The notes under the pieces were generated by a model. That model made no database searches, was not told the origin of the DNA, and saw only the letters and a program-made list of their open reading frames with translations. DNA of 9,071 nt from a virus (Duplodnaviria > Heunggongvirae > Uroviricota > Caudoviricetes): the IMG/VR virus record IMGVR_UViG_2654587570_000008; one strand, written 5' to 3'. This document shows, piece after piece, positions 894-4,907 of the stretch. Position 1 is the first letter of the stretch; the number at the start of each line of letters is the position of its first letter. The position numbers and the translations under genes are program-made.

Positions 894-1312
894 CAGATAA
901 AACACTCTCCAGGAAACCCGGGGCGGTTCAGGCCGCCGGTCGTTATATTCGTTCGCATGAAGCCGTTCAGCACATCAGCATCCGCGACCGGCTGAATGAT
1001 TTTATGCAGCAGCACGGCACAGTACTGGCGGCCGCACTGGCACCGGAGCTGATGGGCTACAGTGAGCTGACGGCCATTGCCCGAAACTGTGCCATACAGC
1101 GTGCCACAGATGCCCTGCGTGAAGCCCTCCTGTCCTGGCTTGCGAAGGGTGAAAAAATTAATTATTCCGCACAGGATAGCGACATTTTAACGGCCATTGG
1201 ATTCAGACCTGACGCGGCTTCGGTGGATGACAGCCGTGAAAAATTCACCCCTGCGCAGAACATGATTTTTTCGCGTAAAAGTGCGCAACTGGCATCACGT
1301 CAGTCTGTGTAA
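894..1312 (+). pseudogene. 5'-truncated remnant of an unknown protein-coding gene, apparently interrupted by the IS3-family element
   Basis: The frame is open from 746 to the TAA at 1310-1312, but its first ~140 nt overlap orfB inside the IS in a different frame. No ATG with a Shine-Dalgarno follows the IS end. Composition is host-like (about 50% G+C by eye). Product not recognised. Confidence 0.35.
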
Positions 1313-1342
1313 AATTCCCCGAAAATCCGCCCGTTTTTACTG

Positions 1343-1376
1343 AAAAAAGCCATGCATCGATAAGGTGCATGGCTTT
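1343..1376. terminator. Candidate bidirectional intrinsic terminator
   Basis: Perfect 9-bp stem AGCCATGCA (1348-1356) / TGCATGGCT (1366-1374) with a 9-nt loop. It is preceded by A6 (1343-1348), giving U6 after the hairpin on the minus strand, and followed by TTT on the plus strand. It lies 35 nt after the stop at 1312. Confidence 0.4.
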
Positions 1377-1403
1377 GCATGCGTTTCCCTGCCTCATTTT
1401 CTG

Positions 1404-1431
1404 CAGACCGCGCCATTCCCGGCGCGGTCTG
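1404..1431. other. Perfect 11-bp GC-rich stem-loop with no adjacent T-tract
   Basis: CAGACCGCGCC (1404-1414) / GGCGCGGTCTG (1421-1431) with loop ATTCCC, inside a GC-rich ORF-free spacer. Function unknown (RNA stabiliser or protein-binding palindrome). Confidence 0.3.
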
Positions 1432-1702
1432 AGCGTGTCAGTGCAACTGCATTAAAACCGCCCCGCAAAGCGGGCGGGCGAGGCGGGGAAAGCACTGCGC
1501 GCCCGGTTGGTGCTCGTTACTAATGTTTTTTGCGCCCGAGCACCGTCGGGAAGGGGCTGGGGGGGGATAGGGGAGGTGCCTGACGTCGCGCGGTAATGTT
1601 GGTAAGTGTGCCGCTGATGGCTTCTGAGGGGAGTGGTAAATAGCCGCCTTTCGACGGTGTAGTGGGGAGAGTATTGCTTACAAACGTAATGAAATTGTTT
1701 GA

Positions 1703-1785: not shown

Positions 1786-2175
1786 ATGAGTATGTTTCAG
1801 ATATCAGCTGGAGTGTTCTTTGATTTAGATAAAATAGAAAAACACGATGGCACATTTGTTTTTTATTCAAATGTTGATGTGTCTTTCTCGGTGGAAAACA
1901 CCTCCCCTCTTTTTAAAGCAAATAAAATAAGTCATGATGGTATAAACTGTTATGTGGTAAACTATACTCTCCTGACCGAAAAACCAGAACGAATTGAAGC
2001 TGGAGTCGTAGTTAGGGCTGGTGATGAGGATTATAGGCAACAATTTATTTTATTATGGGAATTCTATTTTGATTGTGTGGCTAGAGTAGAAAAAGAATCG
2101 GTTAAAAAATATGTGCATTATCAAATTTTAATAAACATCACTCAAAAATTGCGCTTGAAGTTGCCCCATATTTAG
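1786..2175 (+). CDS. Hypothetical protein, 129 aa (cassette gene A); start may be the ATG at 1792
   Basis: ORF with an AAGGA Shine-Dalgarno at 1781-1785, better spaced for the ATG at 1792. Strongly AT-rich codon usage. Its TAG stop (2173-2175) shares one base with the GTG start of the next ORF. No recognisable motif or transmembrane segment. Confidence 0.6.
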   Translation: MSMFQISAGVFFDLDKIEKHDGTFVFYSNVDVSFSVENTSPLFKANKISHDGINCYVVNYTLLTEKPERIEAGVVVRAGDEDYRQQFILLWEFYFDCVARVEKESVKKYVHYQILINITQKLRLKLPHI

Positions 2176-3494
2176 TGGAGATTAACCGAAGAGTTTCATT
2201 TGATGATGTCTCTGGGTTTTCTGCTTTTATTAAAGATGTAGTGAATCTAAATAGATCTGCCTTTAAATCTTTAATGGCAGCGTTAAAAATAATTAGTGAT
2301 TCAAAAGAATCATTGTCAACCAACTTTGACCTGACTTATTCCATGTTAGTCTATGCCTTGGAGTCTTTGTCTCAAAGAAATGATAACTATAAGTCTGATT
2401 GGGATGACTACGATCAAAAAACCAGAGGTGAATTAGAGTCTGTATTTGAGCATATGCCTGGTGAGGATGTTTGTAAAATTAAATCAATACTTATTGAAGG
2501 CAAACAATTCAGATTACAAAAAAGGTTCAAAGATTTTATACTGAAAAATCTTGAAGAAAATTATTTCAATGAAACAGAGAGATATCCAATCCGCTATAGC
2601 TTCCTTAGTAGAGCTTTAGATAATTTATACAAAATCAGGTCTTCTTTTGTCCATGAGCTTAAGCCACTTGATGCAATGATCTCGAAAGCCTACAATCCTG
2701 TTGGTGATTGTCTGGTTCTTTTTGGCGAACCTCACTTCAGTTACTCTGGATTGCTTCGACTTCTTCGCCATGTGATAATAAATTTTTGCCGTAAAAACTA
2801 CAGTCAAAAAAGAGAGTATGTTAATTGGGTGATGGAAACATCGGGTGTAATGGTTGCAGAGATATCTGCACAATATTGGCTCTGGAATGCAGACGGATTT
2901 ACAGCTAAAAGTATAGCGAAGTGGTTTAGTGAATACCTAAATATGTTAAATTTAGGCGAAGTCACTGATTTGCAGTCTATCATGGACAAAATTGAGATAA
3001 TCTATGACCAATCCAAAAAAGAATATAAAAATGGGTTGTTGTATTTTTATTTCTTATATAACTTAATGCATAATGGAAATAAGGGTGAATGGCTTGAGTT
3101 TGCGAACAAGCGAAGTTCTATACTTGTTTGTGATATATATTGGTATTCATGCTCTCCATATTTATATAAATCATTTACTAATGTTTCAAATGGTATTGCT
3201 GATATAAAAACATTGAGAAACTTTTTGTCTTGTTTTAACGAATATGATAAAAATAAATTTAAGCCAAATCGTTTAAATCTCCCTGCAATGACCGAAGTAA
3301 TTATGTTGGCTTGCGCAGCAAATTCATTCTTCAGAATTGGAATGTATCAAGACTATGTTTTAATGGGCAATAGAGCGATGAGAGAAATTGCTTCAGTAAA
3401 AGATGTATTTTATTATATAAAAGAACGATTAAGTAATTCACAACTTATTGAATTGGACGAGTGCTTGAGATTGTATAGAAAAAAGGGGGGCTAA
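2175..3494 (+). CDS. Hypothetical protein, 439 aa (cassette gene B); possible HEPN-like Rx4H motif, unverified
   Basis: Long uninterrupted ORF in AT-rich DNA. It starts with GTG overlapping the upstream stop (TAGTG) and its stop TAA (3492-3494) overlaps the integrase stop. Contains R-SSFV-H at residues 155-160 (nt 2637-2654). No Walker A motif or transmembrane helix seen. Confidence 0.65.
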   Translation: MEINRRVSFDDVSGFSAFIKDVVNLNRSAFKSLMAALKIISDSKESLSTNFDLTYSMLVYALESLSQRNDNYKSDWDDYDQKTRGELESVFEHMPGEDVCKIKSILIEGKQFRLQKRFKDFILKNLEENYFNETERYPIRYSFLSRALDNLYKIRSSFVHELKPLDAMISKAYNPVGDCLVLFGEPHFSYSGLLRLLRHVIINFCRKNYSQKREYVNWVMETSGVMVAEISAQYWLWNADGFTAKSIAKWFSEYLNMLNLGEVTDLQSIMDKIEIIYDQSKKEYKNGLLYFYFLYNLMHNGNKGEWLEFANKRSSILVCDIYWYSCSPYLYKSFTNVSNGIADIKTLRNFLSCFNEYDKNKFKPNRLNLPAMTEVIMLACAANSFFRIGMYQDYVLMGNRAMREIASVKDVFYYIKERLSNSQLIELDECLRLYRKKGG

Positions 3495-3510
3495 CCCCTT
3501 TTATTTTTAA
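3483..3510. terminator. Candidate bidirectional terminator at the convergent gene ends
   Basis: Short GC stem GGGG (3487-3490) / CCCC (3495-3498) with loop CTAA, flanked by AAAA upstream and TTTTATTTTT downstream, so a U-tract follows the hairpin on both strands. The stem is short, so strength is doubtful. Confidence 0.35.
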
Positions 3511-4687
3511 CGTATTCACCCCACCAATCCATCAATTCAATTCGCTGCACGAGATAAGTAGAACGATTGTATGCTTTTCTAACTTCATTTTTATCACTGT
3601 GGGCTAAGGCAGACTCGATAACATCAGGATTTAATCCAGCTTCATTCATGGCTGTACTTGCTATTGAACGTAATCCATGGGCAACTAATTTTCCGCCAAA
3701 ACCAATACGTTTTAAAGCTGCATTTGCAGTCTGACTGTTCATTGGTTTCTTTGGGTCATTCCGACTCGGAAAAACATATTCACGATGAGCACTAATAGGC
3801 TTCATCACATTAAGAATCTCTAATGCCTGAGATGATAGAGGAATTATGTGTTCCCGTTTAGCCTTCATCCGTTCGGCAGGAATCGTCCAGAGCTTTGCAT
3901 GAAGATCGATTTCTTCCCACCGAGTACTGGAGGCTTCAGAAGGGCGCACAAGAGTCAGGAGTTGCCATTCAATTAGACAGCGAGTCGGGATAGACAGATT
4001 TGACATGACTAAAGAACGCATCAGCTTTGGTAATTCTTCAGGTCGAAGCGTCGGCATGTTTTGTTTTTTTGGCTTTTCGAAGGCCATGCCAACACCTGAT
4101 GCTGGGTTTGCATCAATCAAGCCAGTGTTAACCGCATAAATCATTATTTCGTTAATGCGTTGCACCAGACGACGTACAGTCTCTAATGCCCCACGAGCTT
4201 TGACTGGCTCAAGTGCTTCGACCAATGTTCTAGCTTTGATCTGCTGAACGGGCATCTCACCAACGGCGGGGAATACATCTTTTTCCAATGAGCGCCAAAT
4301 ATCTTTTGCATAATCAGGGGTAACACTTTTGCTTTTGAGCTGAAACCAATTAGCGGCGACCGTCGAGAAAATACTGTCCTGTGCGATTTGCTGCTGTTCC
4401 TCTGCAATTTCAGCTTGAATTTGCGGGTCAATTCCGTTGGCTAACAAGGAAAGGTAATCCGCTCTTAAGCGTCGGGCGTCAGCAAGTGAAAGGGCTGGGA
4501 AGGCTCCTAGCCCCATCATTGTCCGTTGCTTTGTTGCCGGACGTTGATAACGGAAACGCCATAACTTCTTACCGTTCGTTTTAACGAGTAGAAAAAGACC
4601 ATCGCCATCATGCAACGTTAGATCCTTTTCTAACGCTTTAGCGCGCAGTACTTCTGTGTTGGTCAGGGGGCGTGTCGTTCTTGCCAA
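3491..4687 (-). CDS. intA: P4-type (IntA-like) tyrosine integrase, site-specific recombinase
   Basis: 398-aa ORF. The N-terminus MARTTRPLT...DGDGLFLLV...KLWRFRY is typical of P4-family integrases, and the C-terminal catalytic region carries AHGLRSIAST (H-x-x-R) and a terminal Tyr in NRSTYL. It sits directly downstream of a tmRNA 3'-end att core, as intA does next to ssrA in E. coli K-12 CP4-57. Start codon is TTG (4685-4687) with an AAGGAG Shine-Dalgarno 8 nt upstream. Confidence 0.9.
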   Translation of the reverse strand: MARTTRPLTNTEVLRAKALEKDLTLHDGDGLFLLVKTNGKKLWRFRYQRPATKQRTMMGLGAFPALSLADARRLRADYLSLLANGIDPQIQAEIAEEQQQIAQDSIFSTVAANWFQLKSKSVTPDYAKDIWRSLEKDVFPAVGEMPVQQIKARTLVEALEPVKARGALETVRRLVQRINEIMIYAVNTGLIDANPASGVGMAFEKPKKQNMPTLRPEELPKLMRSLVMSNLSIPTRCLIEWQLLTLVRPSEASSTRWEEIDLHAKLWTIPAERMKAKREHIIPLSSQALEILNVMKPISAHREYVFPSRNDPKKPMNSQTANAALKRIGFGGKLVAHGLRSIASTAMNEAGLNPDVIESALAHSDKNEVRKAYNRSTYLVQRIELMDWWGEYVKNKRG

Positions 4688-4838: not shown

Positions 4839-4871
4839 CAGGATTTCTCCGGACGTATCCGGAAGAGCAAG

Positions 4872-4907
4872 TGGTGGAGCTGGCGGGAGTTGAACCCGTG
4901 TCTGAAA
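4872..4907 (-). other. Attachment-site remnant: 3'-terminal ~36 nt of a tmRNA (ssrA) gene, without the gene body
   Basis: The reverse complement of 4872-4898 reads CGGGTTCAACTCCCGCCAGCTCCACCA, the T-arm/acceptor 3' end of E. coli tmRNA as I recall it. Similarity continues with 2 mismatches to about 4907 and is then lost in AT-rich DNA, so this is a junction core, not an intact gene. Confidence 0.7.

Follow-up and report, generated by a model that had tools for sequence, protein, structure and literature searches.

Within the window (the whole stretch of viral DNA that was analysed, 9,071 nucleotides), the hairpin-dense region at about 1346-1531 is very probably the packaging site, cos (cohesive ends), of a P4-like satellite prophage that is inserted at ssrA, an ordinary and already-known element and not a novel RNA or G-quadruplex. 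This assignment is built on identities, positions, a conservation pattern and a cargo-gene linkage that we observed directly. The 19-mer at 1477-1495 on the plus strand is cosN, GGCGAGGCGGGGAAAGCAC; the same letters open the P4 record (bases 1-19) and are annotated as cosL/cosR in P2, and the end of the P4 record falls exactly at window position 1476. Upstream of this point, window 1300-1476 is 98.3% identical to P4 11448-11624, from the psu 3' end to the end of the record. Matches to the 19-mer outside Enterobacterales (L011, L012, L028, L031 and L041) were regarded as chance and left out. A 55-bp core is described for P2-family cos sites (Ziermann and Calendar 1990, as cited in PMC5694545); in the window it would span 1448-1502, limits that we drew from the block of P2/P4 identity. 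The features of the region and its surroundings are the following (strand given where a feature has one):

931-1312, plus strand: the 3' portion of the polarity suppression / capsid decoration gene psu, truncated upstream by IS911
1346-1380: distal cos repeats, TGCAT at 1353, 1366 and 1376 (-124, -111 and -101 from the nick)
1346-1356 / 1366-1376: 11-nt inverted repeat holding the TGCATs at 1353 and 1366, loop of 9 nt
1404-1414 / 1421-1431: perfect 11-bp inverted repeat
1448-1502: putative limits of the 55-bp core (TGCGCGC preceded by the 19-nt cohesive end and, left of the nick, by 29 bp); 54/55 positions agree with P4 and 53/55 with P2
1458-1477: GC hairpin directly at the nick site, preceded on the left by AAAA; resembles a terminator when read on the minus strand (stem, then TTTT)
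1503-1665: probable diverged copy of the P2-like spacer between cos and the terminator of the portal gene (Q)
1509-1516 / 1537-1544: 8-bp inverted repeat GGTGCTCG / CGAGCACC, flanking an AT-rich tract at about 1517-1533
1548-1573, plus strand: GGG-GGGG-G8-GGGG, a canonical G4 motif (four tracts, G>=3 N1-7)
1619-1629, minus strand: conserved distal block GGCTTCTGAGG, an 11-mer found exactly in Klebsiella/Raoultella-type P2-like spacers
1642-1657, minus strand: probable degenerate remnant of the portal-gene terminator tQ, with AGCCGCC at 1642 and a weak hairpin at 1644-1657
1680-1791 and 1792-3494, plus strand: AT-rich leader and hotspot cargo gene, the latter frameshifted in the window
3491-4687, minus strand: satellite integrase on the far side of the psu-int hotspot, annotated as integrase beside ssrA in relatives

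The genes on either side of the site agree with this assignment, as the order psu-cos-cargo-int-ssrA is the same in annotated relatives. Positions 928-1312 are identical to psu of E. coli NS-NP030, with the IS911 end at about 928-931, and all full-length matches are annotated as 'phage polarity suppression protein', the psu stop codon lying at 1312. An intact 567-aa cargo gene is annotated at this place in strains ATCC 8739, NS-NP030 and XJ34, whereas the window is short by one A in an A7 run at about 2104-2110. With psu split by IS911 and a frameshift in the cargo gene, this may be a decaying satellite whose cos is perhaps out of use. In a functional element of this kind, the satellite DNA, once excised and replicated, would be recognised by the terminase of a P2-type helper and its strands nicked 19 nt apart, at positions that we infer from where the P2 and P4 genome records end (1476/1477 on the top and 1495/1496 on the bottom strand), and a linear genome would be packaged that has psu on the right and the hotspot cargo on the left.

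The preliminary description had taken the region for a spacer. All the features that it listed are present (the 11-bp stem, the GC hairpin, the 8-nt repeat pair, the G-tracts and the drop in GC content), but the hairpins of 1346-1376, 1404-1431 and 1458-1477 are parts of the cos signal for packaging, a signal shared with P4 (98% identity) and P2. The first of them had been placed at 1348-1374; the hairpin exists, its true arms being those given above. Recognition of the cos site explains the hairpin cluster and clears away the false lead of a small RNA or G-quadruplex element.

What is conserved to the left of the nick is a set of short words at set distances. In 135 unique left flanks (P2-like plus P4-like), TGCAT occurs on average 3.7 times per 160 nt against 0.15 expected, and the window carries it at -124, -111, -101 and -29, offsets that are used in 47-95% of these flanks (47%, 64% and 72% for a start at -124, -111 and -101, respectively). 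The copy at -29 forms a TGCAA/TGCAT pair with a word at -35. The criteria for the TGCAT repeats and for the AT-rich tract were derived in the present analysis and are not published ones; the conservation of both suggests that they may be terminase or bending sites. The left-hand structures, namely the TGCAT repeats, the GC-rich motif, the TGCAA/TGCAT pair and the GC hairpin abutting the nick, are pieces of the packaging signal, with the repeats as candidate binding sites for terminase. The general design of terminase sites is a nick flanked by short repeats at about helical spacing and possibly by a bending AT-rich tract, as in lambda, where cos consists of cosQ, cosN, the I1/IHF site and the cosB R sites. 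The likeness of the window to lambda cos would be a functional analogy only, as there is no sequence similarity and the cohesive end is 12 nt in lambda versus 19 nt here, and the repeated words of the window would, unlike those of lambda, lie on the future right-end side of the genome.

Base pairing in these structures is less well kept than the words. The 11-bp stem is perfect in the window and 10/11 in P4, and at 1404-1431 sequence conservation is confined to the right arm and the bases that follow it (CCCGGCGCGGyCTGAGC). Across 18 distinct P4-like sequences, 66.7% of the cells pair compared to a shuffle mean of 66.3%, and compensatory changes are not in excess. The GC hairpin at 1458-1477 occurs in P2 and P4 alike; in related loci its 3' arm AAGCGGGC[A/G] is nearly invariant, and the 5' arm and the loop are variable, with no compensating changes. 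Folded as single-stranded DNA, 1335-1690 does better than its shuffles (z = -3.29; 1/100 shuffles as good).

The 1346-1376 and 1458-1477 hairpins could also serve as terminators or insulators, perhaps as a second role beside cos, though on balance this is unlikely: on the plus strand they would end the sid-delta-psu operon, and on the minus strand they would block transcription of the cargo (in P2, of the P-Q operon) from entering psu across cos. A terminator scan of 1250-1850 reported 1458-1477 on the minus strand as its sole site (6 GC pairs followed by TTTTAATG), and on the same strand the 11-bp stem of 1346-1376, which lies 34 nt past the psu stop codon, is followed by T6; the scan made no call here because the loop has 9 nt. 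The orientation of P4-hotspot cargo, which is found in either direction (PMC9122126), also fits such a role, as do the sole weak matches of Rfam in this region, three chance-level hits in a permissive scan of 1250-1850 to terminator-like hairpin parts of unrelated families (E = 2.6-4.4). However, one terminator-like site against 0.5 expected is no excess, the plus-strand tail past 1376 is poor (TTTGCATG), and no minus-strand gene within the window is directed at cos. Moreover, the family keeps the TGCAT words in their set positions, and the 3' arm of the GC hairpin, but not base pairing, and in P2 the TGCAT words are direct repeats without a hairpin.

On the right side of the core, all cos sites of the P2/P4 family have an AT-rich tract in common, at about +41 to +55: between +41 and +50, the AT fraction amounts to 0.88-0.93 in every class of cos locus, including satellites with unrelated cargo. 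The 8-bp inverted repeat that flanks this tract carries an uncompensated T-to-C change in its left arm in ATCC 8739. Apparent compensatory changes between this repeat and P2, judged by eye, were set aside, as ATCC 8739 with its uncompensated change is the closest relative. In an energy test, a hairpin around the AT tract scored z = -1.8 in the window, and 47 unique P2-like segments had a mean z of -1.07.

The remainder of this flank, 1503-1665, is best read as a diverged helper-type spacer that ends in a decayed terminator remnant. The P2 record (NC_001895) has cosL at 1-19, a spacer at 20-159 and the terminator tQ at 160-181, and P2 and P2-like prophages resemble the window in their TGCAT offsets, in an AT tract at about +41 to +50 and in a G/T-rich top strand (72 G versus 31 C in 1504-1680 of the window). 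Local alignment of the flank with 87 P2-like spacers gave a score of 74, compared to 45.5 +/- 4.5 for dinucleotide shuffles and 47-52 +/- 5 for block shuffles (0/200 as high in each case). The distal half alone scored 51 versus 38 +/- 3.4 (0/200), and the proximal half (1503-1590, with the inverted repeat and the G-tracts) was not significant on its own (45 versus 42.1 +/- 3.2; 42/200 shuffles as high). From the cos core, BLAST alignments reach 1554-1558 in P2-like phages, whereas blastn with 1496-1700 alone found no phage match and, among the first 38 loci, nothing beyond chance words of 12-17 nt. Since an nhmmer profile of 20 P2-type spacers found nothing at E <= 10 in the core-masked window, we based the homology on shuffle-controlled local alignment and on collinearity with the P2-like spacer from cos to the terminator stem, which holds for the whole flank and is weak for 1503-1590. 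Over +27 to +175 the window is 57-60% identical to P2-like spacers, a distance similar to that among P2-like types of different genera (59-65% identical to one another). Among psu-positive loci of other genera, 10/28 clearly have a spacer of P2 type, and the similarity continues through tQ and into the 3' end of Q.

At the far end of this putative spacer, the alignment with one relative (L009) terminates in AAAxAGCCGCC, which is the tQ stem. The minus-strand hairpin at this place is predicted at -7.5 kcal/mol, compared to -12.6 for tQ of P2. Because it has a 5-bp stem and a broken U-tract and no Q lies downstream, we regard it as a probable remnant and not as an intact member; a functional terminator followed by the portal gene Q was not found, and no Q homologue is present downstream in psu-positive loci. 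Whereas in P2 the portal gene comes after tQ, in the window a cargo gene of the opposite strand comes after the decayed terminator, and to the left of cos the window has psu where P2 has the old/tin hotspot.

A helper-type spacer is kept in the element of the window and in Klebsiella/Raoultella P4-like elements. The spacer could be an extended packaging signal that was captured from P2-like helpers by joining at cos, with a slippage-prone, G4-capable G-run that modulates packaging or the swapping of cargo beside cos, a proposal that we consider a long shot. Were it true, it would be direct sequence evidence of DNA flow from helper to satellite at cos, and would contrast with the exchange of defence genes between P2 and P4, which is reported to be near-absent (PMC13586616). 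The fixed-offset TGCAT repeats, the shared AT-rich tract at +41 to +50 and the helper-type spacer retained by some satellites are by-products that may be useful for engineering P4/P2 packaging signals or for studies of cos-adjacent cargo exchange, and they refine a known system rather than reveal a new one.

The G-tracts at 1548-1573 would, as part of this helper-type spacer, be a stretch prone to slippage. They do fit a G-quadruplex pattern, as had been noted beforehand: G4 prediction found here the sole canonical motif in the 9-kb window, and 1549-1573 has a G4Hunter-type score of 2.76 and is the only stretch of the window with |score| >= 1.5. That this sequence folds into a functional G-quadruplex, acting in cargo expression, packaging or recombination beside cos, is nevertheless very unlikely. 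The top strand of P2-type spacers is generally G-rich (GC skew +0.19 to +0.41), with runs of G4 to G7 at +94 to +160 and of G9 and G12 in other P2-like spacers, and a 9.8-kb deletion in strain XJ34 ends within the G-run, observations that could all be taken in favour of such a structure. Yet the canonical motif is not conserved: of about 33 related cos flanks only 1 has it, and P4, which is the reference satellite for packaging by P2, lacks G-tracts on the right side of cos. Composition alone yields the motif in 6% of dinucleotide shuffles of the G-rich stretch (1380-1680) and in 4% when the whole window is shuffled. Furthermore, the G8 run is G6, G7, G8 or G10 among E. coli copies that are otherwise at least 98% identical, as for an unconstrained homopolymer or sequencing noise, and the XJ34 junction is accounted for by a 7-bp microhomology, GGGGATA.

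A small minus-strand RNA starting at about 1500-1750 and ending at the hairpin 1458-1477 or 1346-1376, which the preliminary description had proposed in similar form, is highly improbable. In its favour are the two minus-strand sites that combine a hairpin with a T-run and a promoter-like site on the minus strand at 1753-1724 that matches 9/12 consensus positions. However, such promoter matches occur at chance frequency (1 found, 0.7 expected), and Rfam matches no family, with the IS911 ALIL pseudoknot at 1-72 being the only call at the gathering threshold in the whole window. The one stem tested (the 11-bp stem) shows no covariation, the candidate terminators are conserved as parts of cos in phages that lack the body of the proposed RNA, and the homologous P2-like spacer lies downstream of a terminator and not of a promoter. 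Only 19 E. coli genomes contain the candidate body itself (1503-1700), and there it is tied to a single cargo gene.

That the GC-rich stretch is a decayed protein-coding region, the outcome that had been named as refuting the earlier description, is scarcely credible and not what we found: a 52-aa GTG ORF at 1365-1523 is indeed in the mechanical ORF list, contrary to the statement that there was no ORF in the track, and strain SCPM-O-B-9504 is annotated with a 68-aa 'hypothetical protein' across the same place, but this ORF is most likely spurious and the region non-coding as described, as the frame crosses the cos core, where P2 and P4 conserve the DNA irrespective of the adjoining genes, the length of the ORF varies with a polymorphic C-run and G-run, and the equivalent interval of P2, from cosL to the Q terminator/stop codon, has no annotated gene.

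The cos site also shows where the variable defence hotspot truly begins on its left side. A boundary had been placed at about 1680, where the composition does shift: GC content falls from 0.555 (1501-1700) to 0.32 (1701-1900) as the spacer ends and the AT-rich leader of the cargo begins. The switch from conserved to variable sequence in E. coli P4-like elements, however, is at about 1503: 2,255 E. coli records match the window, mostly only up to 1503, and 1496-1700 is present in just 19/5,426 complete E. coli genomes, each time beside the same cargo gene, making this cargo variant a rare one. The P4-like satellite defence hotspot has the layout psu-cos-variable cargo-int (Rousset et al. 2022, PMC9122126), and a conserved/variable switch right after the cos core is illustrated there for five strains. 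The layout of the window is the same, but its variable part opens with helper-type spacer and not with a cargo gene. Likewise, P4 cos (NC_001609, 11448-11624 joined to 1-26) sits, as in the window, between psu and a non-essential/defence hotspot that ends at int. Base +20 is T in the window and in P2 and C in P4, and beyond +26 P4 enters AT-rich DNA and gop directly, without G-tracts, whereas the window continues with about 160 bp of GC-rich helper-type spacer.

The retrons Ec67 and Ec86 reportedly offer a parallel in a 186-related prophage, where they are said, after Dodd and Egan in 1996, to replace the DNA between cos and the terminator. What the two cases would have in common is the idea of an exchange of foreign cargo in an interval that is bounded by cos and a nearby terminator; the retron case involves a helper-type phage with the cargo inside this interval, whereas the element in the window is a satellite with its cargo just past the terminator remnant.

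The GC-rich, hairpin-dense region around 1380-1680 is a known element: a cos site of P2/P4 type, bordering a P4 defence hotspot, with a diverged spacer of helper type after it. Bases 1477-1495 (GGCGAGGCGGGGAAAGCAC) equal bases 1-19 of the record of the reference satellite phage P4 (NC_001609) and the annotated cosL/cosR of the helper phage P2 (NC_001895), the last base of the P4 record corresponds exactly to 1476, and identity between 1300-1476 and P4 11448-11624 is 98.3%. The stretch 1448-1502 matches P4 at 54/55 and P2 at 53/55 positions; it takes in 29 bp left of the nick, then the cohesive end, then TGCGCGC. It fits the 55-bp core of cos sites in the P2 family for which PMC5694545 cites Ziermann and Calendar (1990), and the exact limits of which we infer. 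P2 and P4 share the cos signal because P4 uses the P2 terminase (PMC9122126). By established P2/P4 biology, the helper terminase would bind cos and nick it 19 nt apart, at 1476/1477 and 1495/1496, and packaging would follow, with psu at the right genome end and the cargo gene at the left end.

Features of the region and its surroundings (window coordinates; offsets in the text are nt from the predicted cos top-strand nick at 1476/1477)
~931-1312, 3' part of psu, the polarity suppression/capsid decoration gene of P4-like satellites
1346-1356 / 1366-1376, 11-nt inverted repeat
1353, 1366, 1376 and 1448, TGCAT copies
1442, TGCAA
1517-1526, AT tract, extended by a T-run (to 1533), at the centre of an 8-bp inverted repeat
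1792-3494, plus strand, cargo ORF
3491-4687, minus strand, integrase
~4858-4890, partial copy of the ssrA 3' end, after the satellite integrase

In complete E. coli genomes that share this DNA, the annotation runs from alpha-primase to sid, delta and psu, then through a hypothetical 567-aa protein, an integrase and ssrA; the gene layout is that of a P4-like satellite (Rousset et al. 2022, PMC9122126). ARAGORN found no tmRNA, and the window has only part of the ssrA 3' end. The window starts inside the transposase gene (orfB) of IS911, with an IS3-family ALIL frameshift pseudoknot at 1-72 (Rfam); IS911 interrupts psu at about codon 64, so that psu is disrupted in the window's strain, and the gene is intact in three E. 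coli relatives that are 100% identical over 1300-1800. Beyond the ssrA remnant lies a second integrase (5757-6929, minus strand), together with yfdR/yfdQ/yfdP-type prophage genes, and thus two elements are integrated in tandem. The final ~95 nt (8976-9071), probably the left end of IS1, recur at tens of thousands of sites across E. coli genomes.

Of 2,255 E. coli records with a match, most are matched only up to 1503, and P4-like loci whose psu is 96-100% identical have flanks that diverge directly after TGCGCGC. The boundary between conserved and variable DNA therefore lies at ~1503 and not at ~1680, where the preliminary description had placed it; GC content does drop after 1680. An AT-rich tract at +41 to +50 (AT fraction 0.88-0.93) is common to all classes of cos loci; satellites with unrelated cargo have it too, and so do those whose cargo starts right after the core. 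Since all classes have this tract, the functional cos probably reaches beyond the 55-bp core.

Cos regions were gathered by exact 19-mer or 26-mer from species-representative genomes and viral contigs, yielding 135 unique left flanks; among the loci, 30 are P4-like, with psu upstream, and 103 are P2-like, with portal gene Q downstream. The flanks are unrelated to each other apart from motifs: TGCAT starts at -124, -111, -101 and -29 in 47%, 64%, 72% and 95% of the 135 flanks, respectively, with a mean of 3.7 copies per 160 nt versus 0.15 expected. These words are common to P2-like and P4-like elements despite their otherwise unrelated flanks (loci L005-L165), and their 13- and 10-nt spacings suggest phased protein-binding sites. 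Judged solely by conservation, the TGCAT repeats and the AT tract would belong to the functional site, making cos ~180 bp long (1353-1531).

A sequence check located every element of the preliminary description where it had been placed, including a perfect 11-nt inverted repeat (1404-1414/1421-1431), a GC hairpin (1458-1477) with an A-run on its left, an 8-nt pair (1509-1516/1537-1544) and G-runs spanning 1548-1573 that fit the canonical G4 motif; 1335-1690 forms a more stable single-stranded DNA fold than shuffled sequences do (z = -3.29). The observations thus stand, but their interpretation for the most part does not, the region being a cos site and helper-type spacer. The first two TGCAT repeats build the hairpin (1346-1376) that had been read as a candidate terminator at 1348-1374; P2 has TGCAT repeats without this hairpin. 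Among 18 distinct P4-like sequences, 66.7% of cells in the 11-bp stem at 1404-1431 pair versus 66.3% in shuffled data, with no excess of compensatory changes, and its right arm, CCCGGCGCGGyCTGAGC, is sequence-conserved in the P4-like set. At the nick-site GC hairpin the 3' arm is near invariant across related loci, while the 5' arm and loop vary uncompensated. By sequence comparison, the overall pattern is one of words kept at fixed positions, which argues for a protein-recognised DNA site and not a structured RNA. The hairpin-plus-T-run sites could double as insulators against transcription across cos, which is compatible with the cos reading. The small minus-strand RNA proposed earlier, with its body right of cos and its end at the cos hairpins, finds no support: Rfam gave no matching family for this region, the one promoter-like match on the minus strand (1753-1724) is no more than chance would give, the supposed terminators belong to cos and are kept in phages without the proposed RNA body, and the homologous P2 spacer sits downstream of a terminator, not of a promoter.

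The remaining right flank (1496-1700), which is not random DNA, is carried by just 19 of the 5,426 complete E. coli genomes, each time together with one and the same cargo gene, and by one viral contig (L103). In alignments this flank is collinear with the P2-like spacer between cos and the portal-gene terminator tQ; against an E. albertii prophage (L009) it aligns from +29 to +173, ending in the tQ stem AAAxAGCCGCC. Aligned locally to 87 distinct P2-like spacers, it reached a best score of 74, compared with 45.5 ± 4.5 for dinucleotide shuffles (0/200) and 47-52 ± 5 for shuffles keeping local composition (0/200), and the cargo flanks of other satellites scored 25-37. The distal half (1591-1676), which contains GGCTTCTGAGG as an exact 11-mer and, where tQ would be, a weak hairpin on the minus strand (1644-1657), is significant by itself (51 versus 38 ± 3.4; 0/200). 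The proximal half, with the inverted repeat and G-tracts, had no significant similarity of its own to P2-like spacers, and nhmmer and blastn searches on the right flank gave no spacer match; we assign the proximal half to the spacer because BLAST extends from the core to 1554-1558, the architecture is shared and it lies between two anchored blocks. Identity to any single P2-like spacer type is 57-60%, comparable to the 59-65% between spacer types of different genera.

Within the first ~200 nt after cos, 10 of 28 psu-positive loci, of Klebsiella/Raoultella type, have a P2-type spacer that is far easier to recognise, with 70-74% identity to local P2-like phages (L018, L021, L024, L025, L027, L036, L040, L064, L100 and L112). 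A helper-type spacer right of cos thus recurs in P4-like satellites, although the type phage P4, unlike the window element, is without one. The similarity in the Klebsiella/Raoultella-type satellites extends past tQ and takes in the final 15-20 nt of Q, so that these satellites hold a remnant of DNA from helpers. Swapping of defence genes between P2 and P4 is reported almost never to occur, and the satellite helper-type spacer bears on the question of P2-P4 DNA exchange raised in that work (PMC13586616). What is new, and mildly so, is confined to refinements of the anatomy and to the presence of a helper-type spacer in satellites; the rest is already known.

The G-tract is the sole canonical G4 motif in the window (G4Hunter-type score 2.76), and 6% of composition-matched shuffles also give such a motif. 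The top strand of P2-type spacers is generally G-rich (GC skew +0.19 to +0.41; runs of four to seven G at +94 to +160), and the canonical four-tract motif occurs in only one other of ~33 related flanks. G12 and G9 runs lie at ~+85 to +100 in the cos-to-Q spacer of the P2-like viral contigs L065 and L060, respectively, so G-runs have expanded repeatedly in this spacer. Among E. coli copies otherwise at least 98% identical, the G8 run (1559-1566) is G6, G7, G8 or G10 and the nearby C3 run (1502-1504) is C3 or C5, both homopolymers being the region's most variable sites. Across these copies the G-run behaves like a homopolymer prone to slippage, in DNA under weak constraint or none; quadruplex folding in vitro is plausible, and a conserved function is not indicated. 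The RefSeq entry WP_071587287.1, a 68-aa 'hypothetical protein' crossing the cos core in E. coli SCPM-O-B-9504 (L168 17-223, window ~1362-1568), is most likely a spurious gene call enabled by length variants of the C- and G-runs. In E. coli XJ34 (L044 4990-5010, about window 1563), a ~9.8-kb deletion from inside ypjA to the G-run removes the satellite and leaves the cargo gene and int, with its junction in the 7-bp microhomology GGGGATA.

The cargo gene has A6 at ~2104-2110, versus A7 in the intact 567-aa homologues of NS-NP030 and ATCC 8739, and with 1 nt missing it falls into two ORFs, 1786-2175 and 2175-3494, reflecting either a pseudogene or a sequencing error. The 567-aa protein (window 1792-3494; locus L043 9493-11196) had no Pfam match, its sole PADLOC match was weak ('Cas13-ApeA', E = 7e-6, residues 148-273), and it is thus an uncharacterised defence candidate in a P4 hotspot, possibly HEPN/ApeA-like. 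In E. coli EC2641 (L045 ~5001, about window 1639), the cargo gene adjoins a truncated integrase gene among IS elements and, since it retains only 1639-1791 upstream, its promoter probably lies within that interval.
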